DNA of 52,766 nucleotides from Verrucomicrobiia bacterium (GCA_035489575.1 DATHJY010000006.1:1-52766); one strand, 5' to 3'. Shown: positions 3,950 through 49,037, counted from the first letter of the stretch. Notes: generated from the letters alone by a model not told the origin. Numbers and translations: made by a program.

Positions 3950-3995
3950 TGATGTCGCTCGTATAGCAATATGTAAATAACAAAGGGGACAGACA

Positions 3996-4520: not shown

Positions 4521-4577
4521 CGTAGTGCCAGGGTCGCCTGGCGCCCTCCTGGGCTAGAAAGGTTTAAGATAAAATAC

Positions 4578-5501
4578 GTGGATCTAGCGAAAATCAAGCG
4601 TGTGGTGCTGTGGGTGGCCGTCTTGGTCGGGTTTTTGGGGTTTGGCCAAAGCGCCTCTGCTGCAACCGGGACAATATACCTAGCCCCGGCGATCACTAAT
4701 CTGACAAATGGTGCAGAAGTATCAATGGCTCTGCGTATCAATCCGGGTGTGGACGTAAACGGCGTACAGGCCGAGATTACCTATGATGGTTCAAAGCTTC
4801 AGCTGGTCTCTGCCAGCGACGCTGGCAGTGCCTTTCCGGAAATAGCAGAACAGAACGTAGCGGCCAATCCTATATCGCTCACCCGAACTACTTCGGGGAA
4901 TACGGTGAACGTAGACTCACTTATTATCACGCTTCGCTTCAAGGCAGTGGCGGCCAGTGGCAGTACCACGATATCTCTCACGGGCAACGCTGCCCAAGGC
5001 ACGACAGTTACCAGTCCTGGGGTGCAGGGAGCAACCGTTACTTTTAGCTCTTCTAGCTCGCCGGCCCCACCAAGCTCACCCACTCCACCTACACCGTCTG
5101 GCGGTAGTAGCACGAGGCAACAGAACCAAAGTACTCCGCAGCCAGAAGATGTACCAGATGTGCCCGGAGCGGTCAATCAGCTGCCCGGAGTTGACCAGCT
5201 AACAAACGACCCCCAGCCTCTAACAGTACCCGACCCACGGGTATCGCACCGTATCTGGTGGCTCTTTGGCGTACTTGGCGTCATCGTTGTGCTGGGCGGT
5301 GCTTACTGGCTGATTCGTCGCCACCGATCTACACCGGCAGAGCTGGCTGCCGACCATCCCATTGATCGTACCTGGGCTACTCCGCCTGTCCACACGGAAG
5401 AAGACGAAGAAACCGACGAGCTGCTGAGCCATATCCCCGGCACGGCCAAGCCAGACCCTGGCAGTATCATTACGCCCAAGGCACCCCCCGAAAAAAAGTA
5501 A
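4578..5501 (+). CDS. Cohesin-like domain surface protein with Pro/Ser/Thr linker and C-terminal TM anchor
   Basis: The start codon is GTG and a signal peptide is present. The segment GTIYLAPA..GAEVSMALRINPGVDVNGVQAEITYDGSKLQLVS resembles cohesin domains. It is followed by a PS-rich linker and a TM segment (WWLFGVLGVIVVLGGAYWLI). Confidence 0.55.
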   Translation: MDLAKIKRVVLWVAVLVGFLGFGQSASAATGTIYLAPAITNLTNGAEVSMALRINPGVDVNGVQAEITYDGSKLQLVSASDAGSAFPEIAEQNVAANPISLTRTTSGNTVNVDSLIITLRFKAVAASGSTTISLTGNAAQGTTVTSPGVQGATVTFSSSSSPAPPSSPTPPTPSGGSSTRQQNQSTPQPEDVPDVPGAVNQLPGVDQLTNDPQPLTVPDPRVSHRIWWLFGVLGVIVVLGGAYWLIRRHRSTPAELAADHPIDRTWATPPVHTEEDEETDELLSHIPGTAKPDPGSIITPKAPPEKK

Positions 5502-5508
5502 CCTGCTT

Positions 5509-5537
5509 TTGATTAAGATTGCTATTTATGGTATAAA
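5509..5537 (+). promoter_or_regulatory. Sigma70-type promoter (TTGATT, 17-nt spacer, TATAAA)
   Basis: TTGATT lies at 5509-5514 and TATAAA at 5532-5537 with a 17-nt spacer. It is about 100 nt upstream of the GTG at 5638. Confidence 0.5.
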
Positions 5538-5637
5538 TAATTTGTTATCTCTTGAGGTAGCCTGTGTGATTGCGCACAGAAATTGACAACAAGGAAGAAG
5601 CAAGCAACAGGCTAGACACCAAAAAAGGAGGGGTCTA

Positions 5638-5922
5638 GTGGAGCTTACGTGGAAGCAGACTATCGCGCTTGTATCGCTCGCCGGCATTGCCTATTACTGT
5701 CGGAGCCAGATACCGGGCATCGCCGCGTTTTGTTACGACTGGCGATGGGCGTTCGTGTTCGGTTTGGCCGGTTCGGTGATTGCACTGACTCTGGGTTTCA
5801 TTGTGTTGCTCATGGTCATGCCACCGGAAGGAGAACATACCAATACCGGACCTCCGAAAGGGTACGTCTACCGACCCCCGCCTGACGAAGACGAAGGCGA
5901 AGACATCTCCTGGATGCTCTGA
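5638..5922 (+). CDS. Small hypothetical membrane protein (94 aa) with moderately elevated GC
   Basis: The GTG start is preceded by AGGAGG. It has two to three hydrophobic segments and an acidic C-terminus. A structured 3' UTR and a hammerhead ribozyme follow on the same strand. Confidence 0.6.
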   Translation: MELTWKQTIALVSLAGIAYYCRSQIPGIAAFCYDWRWAFVFGLAGSVIALTLGFIVLLMVMPPEGEHTNTGPPKGYVYRPPPDEDEGEDISWML

Positions 5923-5947
5923 CACGAATGCGGGTATCAGAATCTGT

Positions 5948-6087
5948 TCAAGGTCTCTGTTGTTCTAAAATGCTCCTCCGGGTGCCCGTTCGCCCTGATC
6001 CACCAATCGCACCGCAGGTGTGCTTGGCGAACCAGTCCGAATTATCACTTGAAGTGGTACATTTTGCCAACAAAGACGAGACCTTGA
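5948..6087 (+). ncRNA. Stem-closed structured 3' UTR element (S/E motif, copy 1)
   Basis: A closing helix forms between tcaaggtctc (5948-5957) and gagaccttga (6078-6087). The internal 32-mer at 6027-6058 matches 34590-34621 at 25 of 32 positions by hand count. The blocks tccggGtg and cgccctg are shared. A variable hairpin (gcacc/gtgtgc here, cgtaac/gttacg in copy 2) occupies the same position. Confidence 0.5.
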
Positions 6088-6122
6088 GCAGGTTCTCTGC
6101 CCCCTTATTCTTCCTTGTCGTC

Positions 6123-6189
6123 TCTCGATTCCATAACTGATAGTTATGCTGATGAGTCCTCCCTGGTTTGTGCAGGACGAAAATCGAGA
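6123..6189 (+). ncRNA. Type III hammerhead ribozyme (HHR-2)
   Basis: The plus strand reads TCTCGATT(6123-6130) C(6131) CATAACT-GAT-AGTTATG(6132-6148) CTGATGA(6149-6155) GTCCT-[13-nt loop]-AGGAC(6156-6178) GAA(6179-6181) AATCGAGA(6182-6189). All invariant core positions are present. Stems I and II are loop-closed and stem III is open. Confidence 0.85.
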
Positions 6190-6206
6190 AGTGATAGACT
6201 GGTGTA

Positions 6207-7652
6207 ATGAGCTCTTCGACTTTTCTGTTCTATGACTTAGAGACTTCGGGTGTTAGCGCCCGGGATGCGCGCATTATGCAGTTTGCTGGCCAGCGGACAG
6301 ACCTGCAGCTCAATCCCGTGGGTGAGCCGTTTAACTATTTGGTTCGCCTGAGCGACGATGTCCTGCCCGAGCCGGACGCCATTCTGATTACGGGCATCAC
6401 GCCCCAAAAAACCTTGGCCGAGGGAATGCACGAAGCTGAATTCTTAAAGATATTCCATCACGATATTGCCGCTCCAGGCACTATCTTTGTGGGCTTTAAT
6501 ACCGTACGGTTCGACGATGAGTTTATGCGCTACACTATGTATCGCAACTTTTATGACCCTTACGAATGGCAGTGGCAAAATGGCCGGTCACGTTGGGATA
6601 TCTTGGACGTAGTACGCATGACACGTGCCCTGAGGCCGCAGGGAATACAGTGGCCGTTTGACCCCAAGGGCAAGCCAACCAACCGACTAGAGTTGCTGAC
6701 CAAGCTGAATAAGCTGGATCACAGTCATGCTCATGACGCGCTCAATGACGTCCTGGCTACCATTGCGGTTGCTAAGATGATCCGCGACAAACAGCCCAAG
6801 CTATTTGATTTCTTGCTACAGATGCGCGACAAAAAAGAGGTGGCCAAGCTGGTCCAGGGTGGGCAGCCGTTTGTGTACAGCTCTGGCAAATACCCCAGCG
6901 AGTTCGAAAAAACTACTGTGGTTGGCAAGCTGGCTGACCATCCCCAGGCCCAGTCGGCCCTTGTCTTTGACCTGCGACACGATCCAGAGCCTTTCCTAAA
7001 ACTCAATCCCAATGAATTGGCCGAGGCCATGCGCTGGAGTCGCGACGAAAATGCCATCCGACTGCCGGTCAAGACCATCAAATTCAACCGTTGTCCGGCC
7101 ATAGCGCCCCTGGGAGTGCTCGATGCCGATAGCCAACAGCGGCTCAAGTTGGATCCGGCTGTCTATATGGCCAACTTCAAAAAACTGCAGGCTGCCCAGG
7201 AGCGCCTGAGTACCGGCGTATTGCAGGCGTTGGAGTTACTCGACAAGAAGATGCAAGCTCGCTTGCTGCAGGATGAGGCCGACGTAGATACTCGTTTGTA
7301 CGACGGCTTTTTTGACACCCAGGACAAGCTAAAGATGAGCACCGTGCGGGCTGCCACTGCCGAAGAGCTGGGTGGCTTAGACCTGACCTTTAAAGACGAT
7401 CGCCTGGAGGCACTGCTGCCACTGTATAAAGCCCGGAATCACCCCAAGTCACTGACCGCCGAAGAGCGGGCACTATGGGAAACGTTTCGGGAACGCAAGC
7501 TACTGGGCGGTGGCGACCAAAGCCGGGCCGCCAAGTTCTTTAACCGGCTGAGCGAGTTGTCGCAGCGCACCGACCTGACTGGCGAGCAGAAATATCTGCT
7601 GGAAGAGCTGCAATTATACGGCCAAGGTATACTGCCCGTTACTGAGCAATAG
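6207..7652 (+). CDS. sbcB: Exodeoxyribonuclease I
   Basis: There is strong similarity to E. coli ExoI along the full length. Matching segments include FLFYDLETSG, ILITGITPQ, FNTVRFDDEF..YRNFYDPYEWQW..SRWDILDV and HDALNDVLATIAVAK. Confidence 0.9.
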   Translation: MSSSTFLFYDLETSGVSARDARIMQFAGQRTDLQLNPVGEPFNYLVRLSDDVLPEPDAILITGITPQKTLAEGMHEAEFLKIFHHDIAAPGTIFVGFNTVRFDDEFMRYTMYRNFYDPYEWQWQNGRSRWDILDVVRMTRALRPQGIQWPFDPKGKPTNRLELLTKLNKLDHSHAHDALNDVLATIAVAKMIRDKQPKLFDFLLQMRDKKEVAKLVQGGQPFVYSSGKYPSEFEKTTVVGKLADHPQAQSALVFDLRHDPEPFLKLNPNELAEAMRWSRDENAIRLPVKTIKFNRCPAIAPLGVLDADSQQRLKLDPAVYMANFKKLQAAQERLSTGVLQALELLDKKMQARLLQDEADVDTRLYDGFFDTQDKLKMSTVRAATAEELGGLDLTFKDDRLEALLPLYKARNHPKSLTAEERALWETFRERKLLGGGDQSRAAKFFNRLSELSQRTDLTGEQKYLLEELQLYGQGILPVTEQ

Positions 7653-8614: not shown

Positions 8615-9066
8615 ATACTTTCTTGTGTTGACAAGAAAGTATCCAAAGAAGCAACCGGCGAACTGGAAACAACAATTGAAAAACTGCGTCGAGCTATCCG
8701 GCTCCTGCGGAACTTGCCCTGCCTTATTATTGTCTTCAATGGAAAGCAGGGCTTCAAACAGTCCTCGGACCGCGGCTTACCTCGACGCAGTTTTTCATCG
8801 GTTTCCACTGAGCCGGCATAGGCCTCCATGGATACAAGCCCTAAAGGGCTTGTTTTTTAATAGCCGAAGGCTGCTGCTTGGAACCAGGCTTTAGCCAAAC
8901 TGATTAGACGGCGGTAACCCGGTTGCTCGCGCTCCGAGGACTAGCCTTTAGGCCGACTAAAAGGAGTCCCGCAGGAGCCGGACAGCCGGGTTACCGGCGG
9001 CTAGTCATGTTTGGGTAACCGCCTGTTGTTTCTTTGGTACCTTTCTTGTCAACACAAGAAAGGTAC
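8615..9066. ncRNA. Large structured RNA candidate, copy R2 (complete); homolog of 1-460
   Basis: It is bounded by two 22-nt segments that are exact reverse complements (ctttcttgtgttgacaagaaag inside 8615-8642 and ctttcttgtcaacacaagaaag inside 9037-9066). A 12-bp long-range helix forms between 8697-8708 and 8971-8982. A second helix forms between 8760-8767 and 8935-8942. The conserved blocks are in the same order as in 1-460. No convincing ORF is present. Confidence 0.55.
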
Positions 9067-15037: not shown

Positions 15038-15214
15038 GCTATAGACAAAAACATTTTTTTATGATCTAATTACTGAAGTTAAAGTTCTGCTTTGACGCCC
15101 TTTGACAGAGCTTACTTATCTCTAGTTGTGAACTAGTTGCAAGGGTGTAACCCTGTGCCGATCAATAGTCGGTAGAGGGTTACACCCGTTCATCAACCAC
15201 AGGAGAGTCTCAGA

Positions 15215-16102
15215 GTGTCTTTTCTCGATCACTTCCTCGAGCCCGTCTACGACGACTCGACACCGCGTCGGCTGAATCCCCTTGGCATCCTCGTTCTGTG
15301 CTCGCTGGTCTTCGCTGTCATCACCGCCCTGGCGTTCGCCTTCGGCGTGCATGATGATCACGAAGCTGCCAGCAATCCCCCCGTCAGCACCACCACGGCT
15401 CCGGCCGTCGACCCCACCACGTCCACCACCGCTCCGACCACCACCTTTACCACCATCGTCACCGACGATGGTGGAGACGCCGAGGTCGACTACTGGCTGA
15501 TGAGGGGTACTGAGCTGCAGTCCATGACGGACGAGGACTGTCTGGCGCAGGACCATTTCGCCTATCTCGGCCTGACCGAGACTGACATGCCCCGTTCCTA
15601 CCCGGACGACTCGTTCTTCCACTTCGACTGTGGCACAGGCTACTGGGGCTGGTATTTCCAAGGCGCCGCCGGTGACACGTGGCAGGCCAGCCGGATCCTT
15701 CTGAGCGATCTGCCGCTGTGCGACGATCTGCCCGCTGGCGAACTGTGTCACGCGATGTTGTCGCTCGACAAGATCGGTGTGCCAACCAACCTGCATCACC
15801 CGTACTTCGAGGATGCCCTCACCCTGAGCGAGATCCACGCCGGTGACACCGTCTGCCTGCGAACCATGAGCCGCACCCCCGGCAAGCCCTCGCTGGGAGA
15901 GACCCTGACCATCGAGAGCGTCGGCACCAGTGCCTACGTTCCCCACGACTCCGACAAGGTCACGGCCTACCCGGCCTACCGCCCGAAGACGGACGACGGC
16001 GAGGACACCCTCTCCTCCTACCGTTCGGCGGAAGACGACGGCCTGGCCCCGTTCTCCAACGGTTTGTGGTCCACCGACTACGTGACGGCAGGCGACTGCT
16101 GA
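15215..16102 (+). CDS. GC-rich hypothetical membrane-anchored or secreted protein
   Basis: The GTG start is preceded by AGGAG. It has an N-terminal TM segment (LGILVLCSLVFAVITALAFAF), a Thr/Pro-rich linker and a Cys- and acid-rich globular region. GC3 is very high. Confidence 0.7.
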   Translation: MSFLDHFLEPVYDDSTPRRLNPLGILVLCSLVFAVITALAFAFGVHDDHEAASNPPVSTTTAPAVDPTTSTTAPTTTFTTIVTDDGGDAEVDYWLMRGTELQSMTDEDCLAQDHFAYLGLTETDMPRSYPDDSFFHFDCGTGYWGWYFQGAAGDTWQASRILLSDLPLCDDLPAGELCHAMLSLDKIGVPTNLHHPYFEDALTLSEIHAGDTVCLRTMSRTPGKPSLGETLTIESVGTSAYVPHDSDKVTAYPAYRPKTDDGEDTLSSYRSAEDDGLAPFSNGLWSTDYVTAGDC

Positions 16103-17455: not shown

Positions 17456-17466
17456 CGGTGTATAAT

Positions 17467-18081
17467 ATGCTTATGCCAAGTAGGAACCGAGTGAAAGTAT
17501 ACGGCCCTCAGCACGTCTATCACGTATATAATAGGGGCAACAACAAAGAACTAGTCTTTCGAGTGTCAGAGGATTACGCGGTTTTCCTTAATATCTTAAA
17601 AAGATATCTCGGAGAAAAGCAAGAGAATGATTCGCTAGGGAGATTGTATAAGAACTTTAGTAGCGAGATTGAGCTAGTGGCCTTTTGCTTGATGCCAAAT
17701 CACTACCATTTACTCCTGTATCAAGAGACCGCAGATGGCATTACAAAACTAATGAAAAGTATTACTGCCTCTTACACGGGCTATTTCAATAAAAAATATG
17801 AACATGTGGGCCATGTTTTTCAGGGGACGTTCAAGGCTTCGCTGATTGATCAAGAGAGCTACTGGCAGCATATTTCACGCTATATTCACTTAAATCCCCG
17901 GCAGTGGCGAAACTGGAGGTGGTCAAGCTTGCCTTATTATCTTGGTGAAAAACAATCTGATTGGGTGAAGCCGGAGCGTTTGTTAGGGGTATTTGAGGGG
18001 CATGATTACTTGAGTTTTGTATCTGACCATGAAGACCACAAGGCTATGCTCGATGAATTAAAGACCATGTTGGCCAACTAG
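17467..18081 (+). CDS. IS200/RAYT-type Y1 (HUH) transposase-like protein
   Basis: The motifs HVYNRGNN, FCLMPNHYHLLL (HUH) and YIHLNP are typical of the Y1_Tnp / REP-associated tyrosine transposase family. Alternative starts lie at 17458 (GTG) and 17473. Confidence 0.75.
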   Translation: MLMPSRNRVKVYGPQHVYHVYNRGNNKELVFRVSEDYAVFLNILKRYLGEKQENDSLGRLYKNFSSEIELVAFCLMPNHYHLLLYQETADGITKLMKSITASYTGYFNKKYEHVGHVFQGTFKASLIDQESYWQHISRYIHLNPRQWRNWRWSSLPYYLGEKQSDWVKPERLLGVFEGHDYLSFVSDHEDHKAMLDELKTMLAN

Positions 18082-21433: not shown

Positions 21434-23245
21434 CTAGCGGTAGCCTTCGGCTTGTTTACTGAATAGTTCGTGGTACAAGCCTTTCTTTTTCATGAGGGCC
21501 TGGTGTGATCCTTGCTCGACAATCTTGCCGTGGTCTATCACGATGATGCGGTTGGCTCGGCGTACGGTGCTAAACCGGTGGCTGACTATCAGGGCCGTTT
21601 TGTCCTGATAGTGGTCAAAGATGTTGTTGAAGATGTCGTATTCGGCCTTAGCGTCTATGGCGCTGGTTGGCTCGTCTAGAATGATCATGTCGGCATTGCG
21701 GTAAAAGGCTCGGGCCAGGGCGACGCGCTGCCATTGTCCACCGCTGGGCTCGACACCTTTTTTGAAGCTGCTGTCCAGCACCGTGTCCCAGCCGTGGGCG
21801 TAGCCCTTGACCATCTCGTCTACGTTGCCAAAAGCCGCCGCTTGCTCAAGCTGTTTGCGGTTGGCTTTCTGGGTAGAGCGGCCAATCTCGATGTTTTCGG
21901 CAATGCTCAGCGGGTAGTGGTTGAAGTCTTGGAATAATGTGGCCAGCTGGGCGTACCAGGTCTCTATGGCTACCTCTTGCAGGTCCTGTCCGTCCACCAA
22001 AATCTGTCCGCTGGTGGGCTGGTAAAAACGGAGCAGCAGCTTTATGAGCGTGCTCTTGCCGGCACCATTTTCGCCAACCAGGGCAACATGCTCGCCCGAT
22101 TTTATTTCTATATTCAGGTTCTCAAAGATTGGTTCGGTCTGGTCTGGATAAGTAAATGACACGTCTTTGAAAACGATTGAGGGTGTAGCGCCAGCGGGCA
22201 GGGCGATGGCGTTTGGTGGATCGACAATACGAGGCTGAGCATCTACCAGGCTAAAGTAGCTGTCGGCAAACAACAAGCCCTCTTGCATACGGGTGAGGGT
22301 GCCAAAAATGCTGTTCAGGGCGCCACCAATGCGCAGCAGGGCACCAGACAAAAAGAAATAGCGCTCTAAAGAAATAGCGTGACTCAGGAATTGTTTTAGC
22401 AGTATCACGGCACCGGTAGCTGTGCCTCCCGCCTCTAGGACTTTGGTCAGCATGAGGGAACGGCTAGCTTTGCGGTACTTGCCCTCTTGTTCTCTATAAA
22501 ACCCTTGGTTCATGGTATCTATCTTGTTCAGGACAAAACTGGAAGCTTGAGAAGTCCGCAGCTCCATCTGGCCCTTTGCCTGACGAATGATGTATTCCAG
22601 ACCCCAAAAGATATGCCGAAAATCGCCCTTGCTGTCCCAGACAAACCACTGCATCTTGGCCATCCGGCTCTCGCCAATAAGGCTGGGTATCAAGAATAGG
22701 GCAATGAGTGGTACTAGCCACCAGGTGATTTGGGATACCACCGCTGTGATAGCCAGAAAGCGGATGAGGCCATAGATCAGCTCCAGGCAGGCGTCGGACA
22801 GGTTGGGTAGTTGCCAAATGTAGGCGCCGCTAATTTTGTTGAGCTGATTGCGCGTACTGGTTTCGTAAAAGCTGCCCAGATCAAATTTGCTGACAGATTT
22901 CAAAAAACTATTGATAGACCACTGTACCAGCGAGAAATACAGCATGCGCTTGCAGTAGCCCATGATCCAAAACCCAATGCCAATGACCACCACGGCCGTG
23001 ATATCCACCCACAGCCACAGCCAAATATTTTGCGTCTGGCCGGTCGCTACGAACAAGGCCAGCAGCGAGCCGAGCTTGGCGGTGGCGTAGATAGAGGCGA
23101 TGGTGCCACCAACCTCGACCAACGCACCCACGAAGTAGCCTACTATAGACGCACGGCGGATGTTCCAGCAGATTCGCAGCATGCGCAGCCCGATGCTCAA
23201 ACGTCGCTTGAACGTGAGGTCTGTGTCGTCTGTTTTATTCTTCAT
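21434..23245 (-). CDS. ABC exporter, fused permease/ATPase half-transporter (4 of 4)
   Basis: It has a six-TM-type N-domain. The NBD carries Walker A GENGAGKST, signature SGGQWQRVALARA and Walker B IILDEPTSAID. Confidence 0.9.
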   Translation of the reverse strand: MKNKTDDTDLTFKRRLSIGLRMLRICWNIRRASIVGYFVGALVEVGGTIASIYATAKLGSLLALFVATGQTQNIWLWLWVDITAVVVIGIGFWIMGYCKRMLYFSLVQWSINSFLKSVSKFDLGSFYETSTRNQLNKISGAYIWQLPNLSDACLELIYGLIRFLAITAVVSQITWWLVPLIALFLIPSLIGESRMAKMQWFVWDSKGDFRHIFWGLEYIIRQAKGQMELRTSQASSFVLNKIDTMNQGFYREQEGKYRKASRSLMLTKVLEAGGTATGAVILLKQFLSHAISLERYFFLSGALLRIGGALNSIFGTLTRMQEGLLFADSYFSLVDAQPRIVDPPNAIALPAGATPSIVFKDVSFTYPDQTEPIFENLNIEIKSGEHVALVGENGAGKSTLIKLLLRFYQPTSGQILVDGQDLQEVAIETWYAQLATLFQDFNHYPLSIAENIEIGRSTQKANRKQLEQAAAFGNVDEMVKGYAHGWDTVLDSSFKKGVEPSGGQWQRVALARAFYRNADMIILDEPTSAIDAKAEYDIFNNIFDHYQDKTALIVSHRFSTVRRANRIIVIDHGKIVEQGSHQALMKKKGLYHELFSKQAEGYR

Positions 23246-23248
23246 ATA

Positions 23249-25012
23249 TTAATCCTCTAAAAACCCGCCGGACTGGTGAGCCCAAAGTTTGGCATAGGTG
23301 CCTTTCTGTTTTAGTAGTTCTTTATGCGTGCCTTCCTCTATGATAGCCCCCTCTTCCAGGACCACAATGCGGTCCATTCGCTGAATGGTGCTGAGCCGGT
23401 GGGCAATCACGATAGCGGTGCGGCCCTTCATGAGCTCCCAGAGGGCTGCCTGAATAAGCACTTCGCTCTCAGAATCAAGGGCACTGGTGGCTTCGTCCAG
23501 GACCAAGATGGGTGCGTCTTTTAGCATAGCCCGGGCAATAGCTACCCGCTGACGCTGTCCGCCGGATAGCTTTACGCCGCGCTCACCCACCGGCGTATCG
23601 TATTGTTTGGGAAGCTGGGTTATAAACTCGTCTGCATGGGCTAGTTTGGCGGCTTTTTCTATCTGCTTGGTGGTGGCATCGGGTTTGCCGTAGGCGATGT
23701 TTTCACTGAGTGAACGGTGAAACAGGAGGGGTTCTTGGGGTACGTAAGCAATGGCTTGGCGCAAGCTGGTCTGGGTGACATCGGCAATATTCTGGCCATC
23801 GATCACGATCTGGCCATCGTCTATGTCAGAGAATCGCAGCAGCAACTTGGTCAGGGTGGTTTTGCCTCCGCCACTGGCACCAACCAGGCCCACCTTTTGG
23901 CCTGGTTGGATCACTAGGCTCATGTGCTCAAACAGGGCATCTGAATTATCTGCATGGGTAAAAGTTACATCCTCGAAGACGATTTTGCCCCGCTTGGCCG
24001 CCAGCTTCTGGGCATTCTTTTTGTCAGTCACCTCTATAGGCTGGTTCAGTATCTCAGTCATTTCCGAAGCATCTGTCAGGTTTTGTTCGATGTTGCGCGT
24101 CAAACTACTCAGGCCCCACAAGACAGACATGATCTGTGTCATATAGACCTGCACTAGTACCAGGGTGCCTACTGTCACATGGCCATGTTGCACCAGGAAT
24201 AGGGAAAGTACCAGTACGGTAGCTTGGAGTAGTATCATCATGGAGCCAAAGGTGGCATCGTTCTTGACGGCTCGCATCCAATATATATACTTTTTTTGCG
24301 CCCGGTCGACGGCCAGCTCATTAAACATCTTTGACTCTGGCTCTTCTGTGGCAAATGACTTAATAGCACTGGCATTGCCAATACTGTCTGCTAAGTAGCC
24401 GGTCAATTTTGTCTCGGCCTTGGCGACGGCTTTTGAGAATCTGATACGCTTCTTAGTCAGCCAGTAATTAAGCGCCACAAAAGCAGCAGACCAGACTACC
24501 ATAACTGCTGCTAGCGGGAGCGAGTAAAAGGCAATGACCACGGCCGACAGCACGACCAATATAAACATCTGCGACACATTGACAACCAAGGCGTCAGTCA
24601 GCGCCACATAGGCGTTAGCAAATCTGTTGGTCTGCGTAACTAATGATCCACTAAAACTGTTGGCATGGAACCGCTGACTTTGGTAAATCAAGTAATTATA
24701 GGCTCGCCGGTACAGATGTGGCTGCACTTTGGTTTCCATCCGCGATAGCTGAAGCAGACCAAAATCCAGGCATATCTGAGCTGCAACGCCCAGTCCAACA
24801 AATAGGGCAATATCAGTCGCAAAGCTACTCATATCTAACTGTCCTTGCTCGCTCCGGATGATTCTGTCAAAGGCTCGGGCTACAACCAAGGGCATCAGAA
24901 GTTTTTGCATGAACATACCACCAGTCCACAGGCCTACTGTAGAGAAGAGCAGGTTTTTATAGCGCAGGTTTTCGCGCAGGTATAGTTTTAGGGTTTGGGC
25001 TCCAACAGACAT
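23249..25012 (-). CDS. ABC exporter, fused permease/ATPase half-transporter (3 of 4)
   Basis: The NBD carries Walker A GASGGGKTT, signature LSGGQRQRVAIARA and Walker B LVLDEATSALD. The architecture is MsbA/MdlB-like. Confidence 0.9.
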   Translation of the reverse strand: MSVGAQTLKLYLRENLRYKNLLFSTVGLWTGGMFMQKLLMPLVVARAFDRIIRSEQGQLDMSSFATDIALFVGLGVAAQICLDFGLLQLSRMETKVQPHLYRRAYNYLIYQSQRFHANSFSGSLVTQTNRFANAYVALTDALVVNVSQMFILVVLSAVVIAFYSLPLAAVMVVWSAAFVALNYWLTKKRIRFSKAVAKAETKLTGYLADSIGNASAIKSFATEEPESKMFNELAVDRAQKKYIYWMRAVKNDATFGSMMILLQATVLVLSLFLVQHGHVTVGTLVLVQVYMTQIMSVLWGLSSLTRNIEQNLTDASEMTEILNQPIEVTDKKNAQKLAAKRGKIVFEDVTFTHADNSDALFEHMSLVIQPGQKVGLVGASGGGKTTLTKLLLRFSDIDDGQIVIDGQNIADVTQTSLRQAIAYVPQEPLLFHRSLSENIAYGKPDATTKQIEKAAKLAHADEFITQLPKQYDTPVGERGVKLSGGQRQRVAIARAMLKDAPILVLDEATSALDSESEVLIQAALWELMKGRTAIVIAHRLSTIQRMDRIVVLEEGAIIEEGTHKELLKQKGTYAKLWAHQSGGFLED

Positions 25013-25021
25013 GATTTCTCC

Positions 25022-26809
25022 TTATTCCTCTATAAATCCACCGGATTGATGCGCCCACAATGTAGCATAGGTGCCTTTTTTGCGCAGCAGCTGGGTATGG
25101 CTGCCTTCCTCTATGATCCGGCCGTCTTCTAGCACTATAATGCGGTCCATTTTTTGGATAGTGCTCAGGCGGTGGGCGATGACAACGGTGGTCCGGCCCT
25201 TCATGAGCTCGCGCAAGGCGGCTTGGATCAAACGCTCTGACTCACTATCTAGGGCACTGGTGGCTTCGTCAAGCACCAGTATGGGTGCGTCTTTTAAGAT
25301 GGCTCGGGCAATGGCTATACGTTGTCGCTGTCCGCCAGACAGCTTGACGCCACGTTCGCCAACCAATGTTTCGTAACCTTTTGGCAGTTTTTTGATGAAC
25401 TCGTGCGCATGGGCTTTGCGGGCTGCCTCCACTATCTCTTGTTCGGTTGCTTGGGGGTTGCCATAGGCAATGTTTTCACGAATACCGCGGTGGAATAGCA
25501 GTGGTTCTTGCGGTACGTAGGCAATGTGTTTGCGCAGATCTGCCTGGGTAATGTCGGCAATATTCTGGCCATCTAACAATATCTGGCCTTTGTCGATGTC
25601 ATTAAAGCGCAGCAGCAATTTGGTCAGGCTGGTCTTGCCCGAGCCCGAATGTCCAACTAGGCCAATTTTTTCGCGTGATTTGATGGCTAGGTTCAGGTCT
25701 ACGAACAGCGGATCGTCCGTGTTTGAGCCATCGTGAGCAAAGCCCATGTGTTGGAATGTAATCGCACCTTTGCCAATGCGAGCCGGCTGGGACTCAGCGG
25801 AATCTTTGACGCTTGGCTCTGTCTGCAGGACTTCCATCATGGACTGAGCATCACCAAACCCACGGTTATAGTTGCGTAGGGCGGTGTTGCAGAATTCCCA
25901 CAGTCTGTCGCGTAGGGTGCTGCTATAGGCAAATACCAGGAACACGGTTGCTACCGGCGCGTTGTAAACCACGACACTGGCGACGGCAATGGTGATGGCG
26001 GCAGCGTTGAGCAGCGCATTGATAAGCGAGAAGCTTATCTGGGCCCGCATAGATGCGACCATGTATCTTATATGAGTATGCCGCCATTTTTCGGTGCCTT
26101 CCATATAACGCTGACCCTCTGCTTTTTGGGCGGCAAAGCTTTTGATGGCCATGACATTGGTTATGCTGTCGGCCAAGTTGCCCGTCTGGCGATTGCTGGC
26201 ATCGGCTTCTTGCCGGGCGCGTAGCCGTACTGACTTGGTGATATAGATGGCTGCAACCACAAAAAAGACGCTAAAAGCGTTCAGGAAGAATACAAACAGC
26301 CTGGCCTTGTTCCACAGAATGACGCTCATAAATATGACAGACCACAACAGACCACCCGTGTTGTATACGGTGGTGTCAGTGATGCGAGTGTAGGCACTGG
26401 CCAGCTTATTTGCTTGCGAAACTAGCGAGCCGCCAAAAGTGTCGGCATGAAAGGTAGCGCTCAGTTTCATGAGGTGGTCAAAGACCTCTTGGTGGATGTC
26501 TCTGACAACCTTGCCCTCGAGCATCCAGTTGCAATACATGTTAATGCGCCAAATAACCACGCCGCCCAGGGAGGCAACTGCTACTACCGTAAGTATGTCT
26601 GGCCCAAAACTGCCCCATAAGTCGCCCCGCACGAAATTACCACTCGCCAGTCTGTTCAGGATGTTGGCAATCATGAGCGCTGGCAAAAATTCATTGAAAA
26701 GCAACGCCAGTGGCACCGTGAGGTACATGCCCCAAAACAAGAACGGGTAGCGTCGGCCATGACGCCAAAAGTATTTGAGAATTGCAGTGTTGGTGGTCAT
26801 TGGGTTCAT
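25022..26809 (-). CDS. ABC exporter, fused permease/ATPase half-transporter (2 of 4)
   Basis: The NBD carries Walker A GHSGSGKTS, signature LSGGQRQRIAIARA and Walker B LVLDEATSALD. Confidence 0.9.
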   Translation of the reverse strand: MNPMTTNTAILKYFWRHGRRYPFLFWGMYLTVPLALLFNEFLPALMIANILNRLASGNFVRGDLWGSFGPDILTVVAVASLGGVVIWRINMYCNWMLEGKVVRDIHQEVFDHLMKLSATFHADTFGGSLVSQANKLASAYTRITDTTVYNTGGLLWSVIFMSVILWNKARLFVFFLNAFSVFFVVAAIYITKSVRLRARQEADASNRQTGNLADSITNVMAIKSFAAQKAEGQRYMEGTEKWRHTHIRYMVASMRAQISFSLINALLNAAAITIAVASVVVYNAPVATVFLVFAYSSTLRDRLWEFCNTALRNYNRGFGDAQSMMEVLQTEPSVKDSAESQPARIGKGAITFQHMGFAHDGSNTDDPLFVDLNLAIKSREKIGLVGHSGSGKTSLTKLLLRFNDIDKGQILLDGQNIADITQADLRKHIAYVPQEPLLFHRGIRENIAYGNPQATEQEIVEAARKAHAHEFIKKLPKGYETLVGERGVKLSGGQRQRIAIARAILKDAPILVLDEATSALDSESERLIQAALRELMKGRTTVVIAHRLSTIQKMDRIIVLEDGRIIEEGSHTQLLRKKGTYATLWAHQSGGFIEE

Positions 26810-26812
26810 GAT

Positions 26813-28594
26813 TTAGTCTTCCAGAAATCCACCGGACTGGTGTTTCCATAGTGAGGCGTAAATGCCATTGTGTTGCAGCAACTCTTTATGCGAACCTTCC
26901 TCGACCACGGCGCCTTTTTCCATCACCAAGATACGATCCATCTTTTGGATAGTGCTGAGGCGGTGAGCGATCACAATGGCTGTGCGGCTTTCCATGAGTT
27001 TCCACAGGGCGTCTTGGATGAGCTTTTCGCTCTCAGAATCCAGAGCAGAGGTGGCTTCGTCCAGCACCAAGATAGGTGCATTTTTGAGCATGGCTCGGGC
27101 AATGGCGATTCGCTGGCGTTGTCCACCAGACAGCTTGACGCCGCGTTCGCCCACCAGCGTGTCATAGCCGTCAGACAGCTCCATGATGAATTCGTGGGCG
27201 TGGGCTACTTTAGCGGCAGCCTCGATCTCGGCCTGAGTAGCATTCGGTTTGCCGTAAGCAATATTCTCTGCGAGCGATCGGTGAAACAGCAACGGCTCTT
27301 GAGGCACATAGGTAATGGCCTGGCGCAGGTCAGCTTGGGTTACGGCGGTGATGTTTTGGCCGTCAATGAGAATCTGGCCGTCATGAATGTCCATGAACCG
27401 GAGCAGCAGTTTGGTAATGGTGGTCTTGCCACCACCACTGTGCCCCACCAGGCCGATCTTTTCGCCGGGCTGGATAGCAAAGCTGAGGTTCTTGAATAGC
27501 TTTTTGTTGGTTCTGTTCCCGGAGTAGCCAAAAGCTACGTCAGAAAACTCGATACCCCCGTGTTTGAATCGGGCAGGCTCTGGTTGCTCGGGGTCTGGGA
27601 CTTCCGGACCTAGACTGAGTATTTCGGTCATGTCAGCAGCATCTCCGAAGGAACGGTTCATGTTCTTCATAACAAACATGGCTTGCCACAGTCTCTCTGT
27701 CAGGCCGTAGGTATATGTAACAATCAAATACAGCGAGCCAATCTGGGCATTAAGCCGTGTGATGGCAAAGATTCCAACCCCAAAGGCCATGATGTTCAGG
27801 ATGGTAATAGTACTGTGACTAACATTTTCGTTCCTGAGTTGGGTGCGCATGAGCCTGAACTGAGCATCTACGGTGTGTGCTGTTTGCTTGCGGAAAATAT
27901 TCAGCTCTTGCTTTTCACCGGCAAAGGCTCGCACTGTTCCTACGTTAGTGATGTTATCTGCCAGCTTGGCTGTGCGTTCGCTCTCGCTGGTGGCGGCTGC
28001 GCGGTTTATGGGAGCTTGCTTGCGCATAAGAAAGAACATAATCACAAAGTACACCAGCGTTATGACGCTAAAGATACCGGCGTATAGTGGGTTAGTCAAA
28101 AATAGGATAGTCAAAGAGGCTATCAGCGCCGTCAGGCCGTTGACGATATTCCAGGTAAAGTCAGCCCAGAACTTGTCATGGGCGGCCGTGAACTTGTTGA
28201 CATTGGAAACTAACGAGCCACCAAAACGGTCGGCATGAAACTTGCTACCCATGTGCTGCAGGTGGTCAAACAGGTATTCTGCAGTTCGTCGTTCACTCAA
28301 GATGCTGTACTTCCAGGTGCAAATAGTCTGGGTCCGCCAGAAAAACAGGCCCGCCATGCTTGAGACGATGTACAGCAGAATATAGGGTTGCAGGGTTGCG
28401 AACGTCAGGGGCTGACCAGCTGCCGAAAGTTCCTGCATGCGGTTAAAGGCGGTCGCAATAATAAGGGGCGGCAAGACATCCGCTAGTAGCACAGCGAAGA
28501 CTACCCCAATAGTGCCATACCAAAACAGGAATGGATAAGGGCGGGTAAATTGCCAAAAGAGGCGCAGCGTTTTCTTAGTTGTAGACACAGCCAT
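26813..28594 (-). CDS. ABC exporter, fused permease/ATPase half-transporter (1 of 4)
   Basis: The NBD carries Walker A GHSGGGKTT, signature LSGGQRQRIAIARA and Walker B LVLDEATSALD. Confidence 0.9.
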   Translation of the reverse strand: MAVSTTKKTLRLFWQFTRPYPFLFWYGTIGVVFAVLLADVLPPLIIATAFNRMQELSAAGQPLTFATLQPYILLYIVSSMAGLFFWRTQTICTWKYSILSERRTAEYLFDHLQHMGSKFHADRFGGSLVSNVNKFTAAHDKFWADFTWNIVNGLTALIASLTILFLTNPLYAGIFSVITLVYFVIMFFLMRKQAPINRAAATSESERTAKLADNITNVGTVRAFAGEKQELNIFRKQTAHTVDAQFRLMRTQLRNENVSHSTITILNIMAFGVGIFAITRLNAQIGSLYLIVTYTYGLTERLWQAMFVMKNMNRSFGDAADMTEILSLGPEVPDPEQPEPARFKHGGIEFSDVAFGYSGNRTNKKLFKNLSFAIQPGEKIGLVGHSGGGKTTITKLLLRFMDIHDGQILIDGQNITAVTQADLRQAITYVPQEPLLFHRSLAENIAYGKPNATQAEIEAAAKVAHAHEFIMELSDGYDTLVGERGVKLSGGQRQRIAIARAMLKNAPILVLDEATSALDSESEKLIQDALWKLMESRTAIVIAHRLSTIQKMDRILVMEKGAVVEEGSHKELLQHNGIYASLWKHQSGGFLED

Positions 28595-33581: not shown

Positions 33582-34478
33582 ATGAATGGGTCTTTGACAT
33601 CTCTGAGATCCCGCATCTTGGCACTGCTGCTGGCAGTGTTCATGACGGCGGGATTTGTCGTCGTTGCCGTTCCCGGCACGGCTTCGGCCGGCGACGGGCG
33701 TTCGGCGACCCCCGAGGGTGAGATCCGGGCGCAGTACATCCACAGCTTGGACCGCCAGCCGGACCAGGGTGGCTATGACAACTACATGTGGTTCGTCCGT
33801 GAGGACTGCCGCTGGGGCATCATGGACGCTTCGTTCAAGATCGCCAACAGCGCCGAGGCCCACCAGCGGTGGCACGACAACCCCCAGGACCTCGCCGGCA
33901 TGTTGTACGCCAGCCTGCTGGACCGCGCCCCTGACCCCGGTGGCCTGCAGACCTACACCGAGGCCATCCGCACCCGTGGGCTGGAGTGGGCCACGGCGTC
34001 CATGCTGGCTTCGCCCGAGTACGAGACCCGGCTGGGCAGCCTCTGTGCAGGCAGGCAGTCGTCCAGCGCAACCATGTTCACCTGGGAAGAGGCCCAGGCC
34101 TTCGTGGACAACGAGATCCTGCCGCGCGCCAAGGACCTGGCCATCGTGTGCGGCGCGACCCACGGGACTATGGTGTCCTTGGGGGCGCTGAAGGGCAGTG
34201 GCAACTTCGCCGTGTCGTTCGTGGGCATGTCCGCGTGGCTGGCCAACCAGTTCAACAGCATGTTCAGCATCGACCGCACCTGTGGCGCAGTCGCGCAGTA
34301 CCTGCTGGCAGCGCGCCGGATCAACCAGATCACCCTGCAGGGCGATCGCTACAACCCGGTGTTCATCCAGGCCGAGAGCGGCCAGCACCGCTGGTTGACC
34401 ACCGTGTTCGACGACTTCACGCTGCGGATCGGTCCCGACCCGACCCATTGGGATCCGTACTCCGGTTCCCATTTCTAG
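33582..34478 (+). CDS. GC-rich secreted protein with DUF4214-like repeats
   Basis: The signal peptide ends in TASA. Two repeats are of the DUF4214 type (SLDRQPDQGGYDNYMWFV and LLDRAPDPGGLQTYTEAI ... ASPEY). The RBS is GGAAGGAGG and GC3 is very high. Confidence 0.75.
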   Translation: MNGSLTSLRSRILALLLAVFMTAGFVVVAVPGTASAGDGRSATPEGEIRAQYIHSLDRQPDQGGYDNYMWFVREDCRWGIMDASFKIANSAEAHQRWHDNPQDLAGMLYASLLDRAPDPGGLQTYTEAIRTRGLEWATASMLASPEYETRLGSLCAGRQSSSATMFTWEEAQAFVDNEILPRAKDLAIVCGATHGTMVSLGALKGSGNFAVSFVGMSAWLANQFNSMFSIDRTCGAVAQYLLAARRINQITLQGDRYNPVFIQAESGQHRWLTTVFDDFTLRIGPDPTHWDPYSGSHF

Positions 34479-46553: not shown

Positions 46554-47609
46554 TTAGGTGCCGTACTTGGAGGCCAACAGGCTCAGGTCTAGCACGTTGA
46601 CCCGGCCGTCGCTGTTGATGTCTGAGCGACCTAGGTTGGCGCCTTGTTGGCCGTACCTGGATGCAAAGATGCTGAGGTCCAGGATGTTTACCTTGGTGTC
46701 TTGATTGATATCTTCTGCGCGGAAAGTAGGCGCGGGTGTAGGCGGCGGGGTCGGAGGAGGCGTAGGTGTAGGAGTTGGTGTGGGTGTTGGGGGAGGCGTA
46801 GGCGGCGGCGTTGGGGGTGGAGTGGGCGCTTGATTCGAAACAGTCACACTTACGGCGGCACTGGTGGCAACGTTGCCCTCGGCGTCATAGGCTTTGGCGG
46901 TCAGGCTGTGTACTCCGTTGCTCACCGAAGTGGTGTTCCAGCTGATAGTGAAGGGGCTGGCCGCATCCTCTAAGATAAGTTGATTGCCTCTAAAGAATTC
47001 AACGCGCGTTACGCCTTGAGCATCGGTGGCATTGGCGGTGAGGGCGACGGTGCCAGAAACGGTCTGGCCATTTGTGGGAGCGGTCAGAGACACGGTGGGC
47101 GGAGTGGTATCCAGTGGGGGCGTGGCACAGTTGTCTCCCAGCCCAGTGGGTACACAGCCGGAATCAGCCGTAAATACAACCCTATCCAGTCTCATGCCTG
47201 TTTCTCTGCCAACCATGCGAATGGTGTGATTGCCGGCGGTCAGGTTAACGGTGATCTTGGAATTGGTGTTGCCGTCACGATGATTTACCCATGTCCAGGT
47301 GTTGGTGGGCAGGGTGTTGTCCCCCACAACTACACCGCAGGTGGTGTCGTCGATCTCTAAATAATACGAATTGTTGGTGGCGTCTGGTGCACTGACTCGA
47401 CTCCAGATGGTGTAGGTAGCGGTGGCCGGCAGCGAAACGGTTTGGGTAGCCGATCCATTAGGGGTGGGCAGGGTGGCGCAAGCTGCCGAAGACCGCTGGA
47501 CAAATCCCAAAATCAGCACAAGGGCAACCAACCCTGACAAGGCGGCCAGAAGAAGGTTAAAATATTTAGCGCGAACTACCGAAGCGTAATGTGTCTGCAT
47601 GAGCGGCAT
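46554..47609 (-). CDS. Secreted protein with Ig-like domain, Pro/Thr linker and C-terminal type-I dockerin
   Basis: It has a signal or TM segment and an Ig-like segment (TVSLTAPTNGQTVSGTVALTANATDAQGVTRVEFF). A linker (PTPPPTPPPTPPPTPTPTPTP...) follows. The dockerin repeats are duplicated (DINQDTKVNILDLSIFASRYG and DINSDGRVNVLDLSLLASKYG). Confidence 0.8.
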   Translation of the reverse strand: MPLMQTHYASVVRAKYFNLLLAALSGLVALVLILGFVQRSSAACATLPTPNGSATQTVSLPATATYTIWSRVSAPDATNNSYYLEIDDTTCGVVVGDNTLPTNTWTWVNHRDGNTNSKITVNLTAGNHTIRMVGRETGMRLDRVVFTADSGCVPTGLGDNCATPPLDTTPPTVSLTAPTNGQTVSGTVALTANATDAQGVTRVEFFRGNQLILEDAASPFTISWNTTSVSNGVHSLTAKAYDAEGNVATSAAVSVTVSNQAPTPPPTPPPTPPPTPTPTPTPTPPPTPPPTPAPTFRAEDINQDTKVNILDLSIFASRYGQQGANLGRSDINSDGRVNVLDLSLLASKYGT

Positions 47610-47654
47610 ATAACTTCTCTTCAGATTACTTTTAACGCTGACTGCTGTCAAACG

Positions 47655-48059
47655 TTAAAGGCTGGTGGTCTCTACTATCTGGCACCGAAAGCCTTCTATA
47701 TTTACGGTCGACCAGGTTTCGATGCCATCTTCACTGGCTTTGTCGTAGCCAAATTTATTGCCGCGGCGGGTAAAGTACTCGCTGTAGTCGTCGAAACCAA
47801 GGCTCTTGCTTACTTTGTATATGACCGAAGTGCCTTTGTGGCATTTCTCTAAACTGGCTCCCACAGGGGGAATCGCATTGTGTGGAATGTTCTGCTTGGC
47901 CTGGCCGTATGCCCTGAGCGCTCCTCTTGGTGTCGACGAGAATAAGGTGCCCGCCAAATACAGATAGATCAAAAGAGCCACCATGCCAATTGCCAGACCG
48001 GCTATGCCCCAAAGCAGCATAAGCCTGCGCTTGGCAAACGGGCGTTTAGCATTTTTCAT
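47655..48059 (-). CDS. Membrane-anchored hypothetical protein
   Basis: The start is set at MKNAKRPFAKRR (ATG at 48057-48059), followed by one TM segment. I recognise no family. HHR-3 lies 44 nt upstream on the same strand. Confidence 0.55.
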   Translation of the reverse strand: MKNAKRPFAKRRLMLLWGIAGLAIGMVALLIYLYLAGTLFSSTPRGALRAYGQAKQNIPHNAIPPVGASLEKCHKGTSVIYKVSKSLGFDDYSEYFTRRGNKFGYDKASEDGIETWSTVNIEGFRCQIVETTSL

Positions 48060-48102: not shown

Positions 48103-48156
48103 AACGCTTTTCGTCCTTTTGGACTCGTCAGTTCTGACCATATCAGAAGAAGCGTT
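48103..48156 (-). ncRNA. Type III hammerhead ribozyme (HHR-3)
   Basis: The minus strand reads AACGCTT C TTCTGA-TATGG-TCAGAA CTGACGA GTCC-AAAA-GGAC GAA AAGCGTT. The element is a complete 54-nt minimal hammerhead. Confidence 0.85.
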
Positions 48157-48281
48157 TGGCATGAAGTAAGGTATGGTTTGATGATCTAAAAGATCAAAAG
48201 ATCAAAAGATGAGGTCCCTCCTCATCACCCTACTTCATGGCCTAGTCGTGGCTAGGACTTTTCCCAAGGTCTTGTCCCGGA

Positions 48282-48845
48282 TCAGTTGGTGCTTGCGTCG
48301 GTCGACTCGTCGCCAGGAACCAGGCGCAGAGGGGTAACAGGTGCCAGCGGACGCGGCTGTTGGGCCGGCGACGGTGCGGACACGCGCCCGGGGAACGAGC
48401 CATCGCGGAGCGCGAACAACGTGTTCAGGACAAAGCCGACGTAGAAGCCGACCGCTGTCAGCGCGATGCGCGTGGTGTCAGGGGTGTCGATGCCCACGTA
48501 GTGGTAGTCCTGCTGGAACGACCAGATGAACATCTCCGTTATGCCGATACCGAAGGCCAAGCCGAACAGAGAGAGCCAGATCGAGTTGCGCCAATGGGAG
48601 AGGGAATCCCCCAAGGAGTGCTTGCCCTCTGCGAGGGTGACCAAGCTCGTGAGTCCACCGGCCAGAATGGCTGCAGCCGTGGTGCAAGCCACCAGCCCAG
48701 CCGGACTCTTGATGGTTCCGAGGCCGAAGGGCCAGATGATCACCATGACCATCACGGGGGCGATCAAGACCTCTGCGGTCTTGCGCATGTTGCGCCAGCC
48801 GCTCGGTGTGATCACAACATCCAGGGCGTGCCGGATGTTTGACAT
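48282..48845 (-). CDS. GC-rich hypothetical integral membrane protein, about 4 TM helices; distant paralog of 660..1154
   Basis: ORF 48282..48992 was trimmed to the ATG at 48843-48845 (MSNIRHALDVV...). It has four hydrophobic segments and a Pro-rich disordered C-terminus. GC3 is high. Confidence 0.7.
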   Translation of the reverse strand: MSNIRHALDVVITPSGWRNMRKTAEVLIAPVMVMVIIWPFGLGTIKSPAGLVACTTAAAILAGGLTSLVTLAEGKHSLGDSLSHWRNSIWLSLFGLAFGIGITEMFIWSFQQDYHYVGIDTPDTTRIALTAVGFYVGFVLNTLFALRDGSFPGRVSAPSPAQQPRPLAPVTPLRLVPGDESTDASTN

Positions 48846-48917
48846 GTTTAGCGTCCTTTCACGGGACAACTTGGGAACTTCCTGGTTTTTGGTCGAGTGG
48901 GAAGTACACTTACCAAT

Positions 48918-48926
48918 ATTATAACA
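48918..48926 (-). promoter_or_regulatory. Extended -10 promoter element TGtTATAAT for the 48282..48845 gene
   Basis: The 9-mer is the same as at 1218-1226, at a similar distance from the start codon. Confidence 0.45.
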
Positions 48927-49037
48927 TATTTCTTTTATAATACGATATCTGCAACGGATTGCACGCCCTTCATTTATCTGTAGATTGACCAAGCAGTGGA
49001 TAGTTACCTACACTTATACAAAAGATTAAGGGGAATT

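Follow-up and report, generated by a model that had tools for sequence, protein, structure and literature searches.

What is a self-cleaving RNA doing between two protein-coding genes of a bacterial chromosome? The question is raised by a 52,766-nt stretch of DNA (GCA_035489575.1 DATHJY010000006.1:1-52766; hereafter the window), in which the minus strand carries a type III hammerhead ribozyme at positions 48103–48156. Hundreds of hammerheads are known from bacteria, and what they do in nature has been unclear since their discovery in 2010–2011. Our analysis places this ribozyme as the last module of a unit of about 850 nt, which comprises a promoter, a 5′ untranslated region (UTR), a cargo gene, a Y-shaped 3′ UTR, and the ribozyme itself. 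With a probability of about 0.55, we favor the view that the ribozyme is a portable, factor-independent element that forms 3′ ends and insulates transcripts for accessory gene cassettes.

The sequence from 48156 to 48103 is exactly the one given in a preliminary description of this locus, and its assignment as a real type III hammerhead is upheld. Helix III is formed by 7 bp between AACGCUU (48156–48150) and AAGCGUU (48109–48103), and the 5′ and 3′ ends of the motif lie at its open side. It is followed by the cleavage nucleotide C17 (C48149), 3′ of which the cut is predicted. Helix I pairs UUCUGA with UCAGAA over 6–7 bp and occupies 48148–48132 together with loop 1 (UAUGG). The core segment CUGACGA (48131–48125) leads into the 4 bp of helix II, in which GUCC and GGAC enclose the AAAA of loop 2 (48124–48113), and the core GAA (48112–48110) completes the motif. 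Every catalytic-core nucleotide is present, namely, the CUGANGA and GAA segments, the A15.1–U16.1 pair, and C17 (N17 is not G), and the three helices surround the core with I and II closed by loops and III open. This three-way junction is the minimum free energy fold of the 54-mer and is also formed within 191 nt of context. Judged by its sequence, this type III hammerhead is catalytically complete, and it probably cleaves itself in the cell.

The Rfam model RF00008 (Hammerhead_3, clan CL00010) aligned the element end to end (1–54) with 40.2 bits and E = 2.5e-5 in E-value mode. A family covariance model made from 76 relatives (R1) matched 48104–48155 on the minus strand with 59.3 bits and E of about 5e-17, the E-values of this home-made model being rough, and because the next chance-level match in the window reached only 10 bits, the ribozyme stands far above chance. 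It had been called minimal; however, loop 1 keeps the invariant U of the family and loop 2 is the conserved AAAA, so that the ribozyme is short but not minimal in a biochemical sense. Other weak Rfam matches in the window (mir-8517, P10, MIAT, and others) were rejected as chance matches or plain hairpins.

This form of hammerhead is concentrated in Saccharibacteria and other Patescibacteria. The scan with the pattern CTGANGAGTCCNNNNGGACGAAA, taking one genome per species, returned at least 120 loci, and among those listed, 51 lie in Saccharibacteria and 31 in other Patescibacteria (82/120). A Nanosynbacter metagenome-assembled genome (L087) is one of the carriers of the family. The type III fold was found in 122 of the 135 unselected pattern matches listed, whereas in viral contigs only 39 of 129 matches to the same core have the type III form. 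In the family, an 18-nt hairpin whose loop is close to UGUGUA typically makes up helix I, helix II reads GUCC-NAAA-GGAC, and the predicted cleavage usually follows a C. In loop 1, an invariant U is followed by a G that hardly varies, and in loop 2, A accounts for at least 90% at each of the final three positions. The alignment of the 76 relatives, which were preselected for pairing, contains changes on both sides in all 6 pairs of helix I and in 5 of the 6 of helix III (11/12 variable pairs), and 95.5% of its cells are paired, as against 34 to 46% with slid partners. A lineage-specific 30-nt pattern had no match in metagenome contigs; a 25-nt version gave 26 loci. We found no paper in the literature that ties hammerheads to Saccharibacteria or the candidate phyla radiation.

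The cassette that ends in the ribozyme begins with its promoter and 5′ UTR at 48846–48950 (minus strand). The AT-rich promoter sequence GTATTATAAAAGAAATATGTTATAATATT lies at about 48950, and the extended −10 box TGTTATAAT is at 48918–48926. Exact copies of TGTTATAAT occur only twice in the window, each 64 to 73 nt upstream of the start of a hammerhead-linked gene. A Shine-Dalgarno–like AAAGGA precedes the ATG of the cargo gene (48282–48845, minus strand), which encodes 187 aa with four transmembrane helices predicted by hydropathy. The GC content of 0.58 and the GC content at third codon positions (GC3) of 0.73, in a genome of about 52% GC, refer to the longest open reading frame (ORF), 48282–48992, and not to the ATG-48845 start. 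The cargo has no Pfam or PHROG family match, and a single homologue was found among 5.8 billion proteins (62% identity), located on contig L122. Its AlphaFold model is all-helical and of low confidence (pLDDT 50), which is insufficient for a search by fold. The stop codon (48282) is 125 nt from the ribozyme, and the ribozyme is 43 nt from the ATG at 48059 of the next gene, for which a TTG at 48098 is an alternative start; the distances given before are upheld.

Between the cargo gene and the ribozyme, and abutting the latter, lies the Y-shaped structure of the 3′ UTR (48158–48242, minus strand). Its long outer stem, formed by AUGAAGUAGGG and CCUUACUUCAU, encloses a terminator-like hairpin and a second hairpin, and the fold of 48285–48095 has a free energy of −60.1 kcal/mol and a z-score of −3.7. 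The claim that the hammerhead marks the downstream end of a gene of atypical composition is supported, and this gene forms a unit of its own. We also noticed that the 3′ UTR at 48180–48215 (minus strand) contains two tandem copies of UCUUUUGA and then a variant copy, UCUUUUAG, and that the orthologue in L122 has one unit fewer.

The boundaries of the cassette are drawn by comparison with L122, which is from a close relative of the window organism (the GSDH proteins are 87% identical and the Big_7 proteins 83%). Similarity between the two extends from the promoter (about 48950) to the 3′ edge of the ribozyme (about 48105), and the flanking genes are unrelated on both sides. The L122 hammerhead retains the core and the helices, and a C-to-U change in helix I preserves the pair as G-U. 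The 3′ UTR is 89.7% identical, the coding region is 78% identical, and the latter contains in-frame indels.

Two further hammerheads are present in the window, and the motif scan and R1 agree that there are exactly three in the 53 kb and none further, in line with the earlier count. Copy 2 is the ribozyme at 48103–48156; copy 1 is at the sbcB locus on the plus strand (6123–6189; R1 match 6125–6187; 46.7 bits), and copy 3 is on the minus strand at 465–530 (43.0 bits). Copy 3 has the core CAGAACUGACGAGUCCAAAAGGACGAAAAG, identical to that of copy 2, and carries a 17-nt hairpin in loop 1 after UGUG; as an insert of about 35 nt is found in the L122 orthologue, loop 1 can evidently accommodate hairpins. 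Copy 3 ends a paralogous cassette, the promoter box, cargo, and structured 3′ UTR of which span 531–1290 on the minus strand. The −10 box TGTTATAAT of this cassette is at 1218–1226, and the cargo gene (660–1154, GC3 0.88) encodes a membrane protein of 164 aa that shares motifs and 25% identity with the 187-aa protein. The outer stem of the 3′ UTR is common to cassettes 2 and 3 and has been preserved via G-C to A-U changes on both sides.

The relative L269 has an orthologous cassette 3 at the same locus, with a nearly identical hammerhead at 6910–6975. The 3′ UTR and ribozyme are about 96% identical, and the −10 box and 5′ UTR about 93%; identity is about 82% in the coding region, where an in-frame indel of 12 nt occurs. 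We estimated the ratio of nonsynonymous to synonymous substitution rates (dN/dS) by the Nei-Gojobori method, in which dS was not corrected for composition. The values were 0.60 (dS 0.47) for cargo 2 and 1.23 (dS 0.18) for cargo 3, compared with 0.04 (dS 1.04) for Obg and 0.06 (dS 0.97) for Big_7. Together with the identities of the UTRs and ribozymes, these values indicate that the RNA elements are strongly constrained, whereas the cargo proteins are under relaxed or diversifying selection. The low dS of the cargo may reflect recent exchange, constraint on synonymous sites, or GC3 bias.

The cargo proteins of both window cassettes are without Pfam or PHROG matches, and no homologue of the 164-aa cargo was found in protein-database searches. 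In L269, the gene caller had annotated an antisense ORF (7086–7601, plus strand) in place of the GC-rich cargo (7107–7586, minus strand), and the true L269 protein is 62% identical to the product of 660–1154. The real protein is missing from the database because of this mis-call, which in part explains why the window protein looks like a singleton. GC-rich cassette units may be systematically mis-called in this way; gene callers can choose the wrong strand in them and so hide the cargo proteins from databases.

The association seen in the window recurs in hammerheads of other genomes and metagenomes, for which context statistics were taken over 146 listed loci. Relative to the locus mean, GC content is raised by 3 to 7 points between −100 and −700 upstream of the ribozyme, falls to −6.7 points in the first 100 nt downstream, and is at baseline beyond (paired p = 1.7e-16). 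The upstream ORF exceeds the locus median GC3 by 0.14 and does so in 82% of the cases listed (p = 3e-14). The proposed association with GC-rich blocks thus holds outside the window. In viral contigs, the GC excess is limited to the last 200 nt upstream. Among the matches listed, the upstream gene is on the ribozyme strand in 91 cases and opposite in 24, and its stop codon lies at a median of 87 nt from the ribozyme, whereas the downstream gene is co-oriented in 66 and opposite in 41, with a median distance from ribozyme to start of 52 nt for the co-oriented genes. In addition, the RNA is more structured over the 110 nt before the ribozyme than over the 110 nt after it (median z of −2.4 and −0.8, respectively; p = 1.5e-6). 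Because the orientation of the downstream gene is unconstrained, the ribozyme is to be read as a 3′-UTR element of the upstream gene and not as a leader of the downstream one. The cargo upstream of family hammerheads is diverse and includes NUDIX, SPFH, and DUF4419 proteins, many small membrane proteins, and many unknowns.

Several pairs of loci suggest that the cargo turns over at the edges of this module. L138 and L147 are 99% identical, yet carry different cargo segments of 541 and 1851 nt, one of which includes an insertion sequence (IS). The variable segment stops exactly at the 5′ edge of the identical ribozyme, which faces the 3′ end of a convergent nusA gene. The syntenic loci L015 (1527–1579) and L016 (6420–6473) are alike in their promoter regions and over the 3′ halves of their ribozymes, with unrelated cargo and a different helix I. 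Their similarity resumes inside the core, and helix III of L015 contains a C-C mismatch, as expected for a chimera of two hammerheads recombined within the core. A Nomurabacteria locus (L060, 7420–7550) and a Saccharimonadia locus (L091, 604–732) have in common only a 131-nt module of 3′ UTR and hammerhead, at 87% identity; helix II of the L091 copy (680–732) is broken, and this copy may be inactive. In the distant relative L270, the genes for LysM/CHAP, Obg, and SbcB directly adjoin each other, the gaps measuring 146 and 98 nt, and a hammerhead is absent; this arrangement represents the empty state, without the blocks in which copies 3 and 1 lie. The corresponding insertion hot spots, LysM/CHAP–Obg and Obg–SbcB, are at 1–2065 and 3341–6206 in the window and at 8856–9000 and 10690–10786 in L270; they hold different sets of small genes in L269, JGI 3300078620, and the window and are empty in L270. 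These cases, few as they are, fit an exchange of cargo beside a constant 3′ module.

Taken together, these features suggest how the ribozyme could act in 3′-end formation and insulation. RNA polymerase would start at the cassette promoter, and the transcripts that pass the leaky terminator-like hairpin would run into the ribozyme, which would then fold and cut after C48149. The upstream product would be the cassette mRNA, ending in the large stem and a short tail with a 2′,3′-cyclic phosphate, and this defined 3′ end should resist 3′ exonucleases and tailing. The downstream product would start with a 5′-OH and the folded ribozyme body, and the 134-aa ORF and the dockerin gene that follow would be physically uncoupled from the cassette transcript. 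The new RNA ends would be expected to affect stability and expression, and the ribozyme would let the gene unit work at any location. The suggestion of the preliminary description that the hammerheads are insulators or processing sites agrees with the upstream strand bias, the structured upstream RNA, and the conservation of the 3′ UTR and ribozyme; a 5′ insulation of the next gene, by contrast, is not favored by the 66 co-oriented against 41 opposite downstream genes.

A number of observations weigh against this interpretation. The terminator-like hairpin at 48208–48226, with a U-tract after it, precedes the ribozyme, so that few transcripts would reach the latter if the hairpin were efficient, and in L138 and L147 an intrinsic terminator lies within about 10 nt after the ribozyme, which means that termination alone does not account for the need for a ribozyme. 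Fast cleavage of type III hammerheads at physiological Mg2+ depends on a tertiary contact between loops 1 and 2. Loop 1 (UAUGG) deviates from the near-invariant UG of the family at its second position, and the cleavage rate could consequently be low. The Rfam score of 40.2 bits is below the RF00008 gathering cut-off of 48.5 bits, a curation threshold and not a structural feature; loop 1 and the short loop 2 explain the shortfall, and a default Rfam scan of the window is silent for this reason. Copy 1 does not conform either. It had been claimed that all three hammerheads follow an atypical gene and that the layout here is the same as at sbcB; the first statement applies to two copies (GC3 0.73 and 0.88), whereas the gene upstream of the sbcB copy is ordinary-looking (GC3 0.65), and the second fails because that copy has neither a GC-rich gene nor a structured 3′ UTR before it (z = −0.2). 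Conversely, the GC-rich genes at 15215–16102 (plus strand, GC3 0.82) and 33582–34478 (plus strand, GC3 0.88, with DUF4214) have no hammerhead by the R1 scan of the window. Lastly, the statistics of the locus set apply to the matches listed, which were chosen by a fixed helix II pattern, and use crude, heuristic ORF calls and z-scores from mononucleotide shuffles.

How does 3′-end formation with insulation compare with other explanations of the same data? A chance match or a decaying relic without function is highly improbable: the Rfam score and damaged members such as the L091 copy speak for it, but the R1 score, the three copies in 53 kb, and a core that is identical in paralogues and orthologues while the adjoining coding sequence diverges do not. 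A RiboJ-like role, in which cleavage gives the next mRNA a uniform 5′-OH end and a folded leader, finds some support in the co-oriented gene that starts 43 to 50 nt after the ribozyme in the window and L122 with no promoter-like site between them, in the start of sbcB 17 nt 3′ of copy 1, and in the median distance of 52 nt given above. However, the downstream gene is opposite in 41 of 107 listed cases, including the convergent nusA, and in the comparison of the window with L122 the upstream gene keeps its ribozyme while the downstream gene is replaced, so we regard this role as unlikely. Cleavage might instead serve to damp expression, as it does in the 3′-UTR hammerheads of mammalian Clec2, by destabilizing the cassette mRNA and keeping a potentially harmful new membrane protein at a low level. 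Small membrane proteins of atypical composition with dN/dS near 1 would suit this explanation, and where a terminator follows the ribozyme, cleavage would strip it from the mRNA; on the other hand, the large conserved stem stays at the new 3′ end and should protect the mRNA, and the cassettes have strong consensus extended −10 promoters. Damping therefore seems to us less probable again than a 5′ role.

The most different alternative assigns RNA cleavage a secondary place and makes the hammerhead, as RNA or DNA, a determinant of recombination or mobility that marks or mediates cassette exchange, with its core as the crossover or insertion point in analogy to attC. The breakpoints match the ribozyme edges in the window/L122 and L138/L147 comparisons and similarity resumes inside the core in L015/L016; L060 and L091 have only their 131-nt module in common; the dS of the cargo (0.18–0.47) is well under the genome background of about 1.0; and the window contains a gene for a Y1 (IS200-like) single-strand transposase. 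However, a constrained element would in any case have breakpoints at its edges, since selection removes changes inside it, and only three or four pairs are informative. Strict conservation of the unpaired core and helical covariation that includes G-U pairs agree with selection for RNA catalysis and not for a DNA site; moreover, no integrase or recombinase adjoins any cassette of the window, and the closest relatives have inherited cassettes 2 and 3 at the same loci. We give this alternative about the same low standing as the RiboJ-like role. Its wider form, in which hammerhead-ended units make up a gene-exchange system of Saccharibacteria and other Patescibacteria with a constant 3′ module, swapped cargo, and the ribozyme sequence as an attC-like recombination or insertion boundary, is marginally less likely than that; if it were true, frequent recombination with GC-biased repair could explain both the high GC3 and the low dS of the cargo.

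The remainder of the window is that of a bacterial chromosome, with genes for Obg, SbcB, UvrA, UvrC, ribosomal protein L25, and an IMPDH-family enzyme, as well as four ABC exporters and cohesin/dockerin and peptidoglycan-binding proteins. The nearest named proteins to its Obg (65–69% identity) are from Candidatus Saccharimonadales/Saccharibacteria, and the window is a segment of a Saccharibacteria (TM7) chromosome. Among phages, there was no megablast match for the region and no tblastn match for two GC-rich proteins. Directly downstream of the ribozyme is the ORF of 134 aa (47655–48059, minus strand), which has no Pfam family and is followed by the Big_7/dockerin gene (46554–47651, minus strand); the minus strand showed no promoter-like site in the gap from the ribozyme to the ATG of this ORF (48059). 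This ORF had been described as the next core gene, a status that is not supported because it is missing beside the cassette in the nearest relative, L122.

Some further observations concern the window and the family at large. A 207-aa ORF (17458–18081, plus strand) contains the Y1_Tnp domain of IS200-like HUH transposases (E = 3e-10), enzymes that work on hairpins of single-stranded DNA; a tie between this transposase and the hairpin-rich ends of the cassettes would be pure speculation. Four consecutive paralogous ABC exporter genes, each encoding 587 to 603 aa, occupy 21434–28594 on the minus strand. A near-perfect hairpin of 44 nt (15144–15187), which Rfam weakly mis-scores as mir-8517, precedes the GC-rich gene at 15215–16102. 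At copy 1, helix I CAUAACUGAUAGUUAUG is typical of the family and loop 2 is enlarged to 13 to 15 nt. Of the 155 cases listed, 22 have a CTTGTC box in the roughly 35 nt that precede the hammerhead, with about 4 expected from control windows; it is the 3′ strand of an upstream stem and marks a subfamily of 14% that includes copy 1 (6100–6122). A sequence motif upstream of all family hammerheads was sought and none was found, the CTTGTC box being confined to this subset.

Elsewhere, hammerheads are densely arrayed. L046 has 10 on the same strand in about 4 kb (2475–6528, plus strand), in a phage-like region with matches to a PHROG helicase and phrog_4652, and L013 has six in about 3 kb (3339–6411, plus strand). 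Some of the spacers of 130 to 300 nt in these arrays are without a clear ORF, and small RNAs may be released from them. The hammerhead form of the window family also occurs in ten metagenome-assembled genomes (MAGs) labelled uncultured Gammaproteobacteria, with GC contents of 31 to 47% and some identical tandem pairs (L010, L041, L051, L052, L055, L066, L078, L081, L083, and L118, or eleven loci with the Pseudomonadales-labelled L022); the labels of these MAGs reflect either true hosts or binning errors.

Three signals, namely, a large, tight subfamily concentrated in Saccharibacteria and other Patescibacteria, its position in the 3′ UTR of co-oriented GC-rich and fast-evolving genes, and the greater conservation of the RNA parts over the proteins, combine into a testable model in which ribozymes would make the 3′ ends of mRNAs and insulate the transcripts of accessory units. 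Saccharibacteria are now accessible to culture and genetic systems. The analysis also flags hammerheads as markers of gene turnover in reduced genomes. The hammerhead itself is of a known kind, and the cassette context appears to be new.

The closest precedent is that of Perreault et al. 2011 (PMC3088659), who reported that bacterial hammerheads flank single genes in prophages and cleave in vitro and in vivo, showed cleavage for three bacterial arrangements, and proposed that long transcripts are processed into gene-length mRNAs. The hammerhead described here has the same core and the same three-helix topology open at helix III and is likewise intergenic in a string of co-oriented genes. However, the copies in the window are single and scattered among housekeeping genes rather than clustered in a prophage, the cargo is without PHROG matches, and each ribozyme goes with the 3′ UTR of a gene that is GC-rich, evolves fast, and has its own promoter.

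As units, the cassettes can be compared with phage morons, which Hendrix and colleagues described in about 2000 as autonomous promoter-gene-terminator units of atypical composition between phage genes. Cassette 2 similarly has a sigma-70–type promoter, a single gene of atypical GC3, and a structured 3′ end with a terminator-like hairpin, and it is present in some and absent from other syntenic genomes; unlike morons, it is chromosomal, with no phage DNA, protein, or PHROG match, and its 3′ end has a ribozyme beside or instead of an intrinsic terminator. Integron cassettes resemble it in their diverse and mostly unknown cargo, in having a structured 3′ element each, and in turnover at a fixed boundary, but the present cassettes have their own promoters, a ribozyme core and not an attC fold, and a single rather than arrayed arrangement in the window. 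An integron was rejected because no integrase domain was found by Pfam in 50 ORFs of the window and the cassette has its own TGTTATAAT promoter.

Type III hammerheads also occur in retrozymes and in viroid-like and Obelisk-type circular RNAs, which need them at both ends of the unit or on a circular template. A unit size of about 1 kb and, in some of them, a single small protein as the product are points of likeness, whereas the cassettes here have only one hammerhead each, are transcribed from a DNA promoter, and are passed on vertically at a fixed chromosomal site. A retrozyme or circular RNA was rejected, as there is one hammerhead per unit and the nearest copy on the same strand is 47 kb off. 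Finally, RiboJ, the sTRSV hammerhead joined to a hairpin, was engineered to standardize the 5′ end of a downstream gene. Both are type III hammerheads between transcription units, the cleavage of which would uncouple the two sides; however, the natural element follows the 3′ end of an upstream gene.

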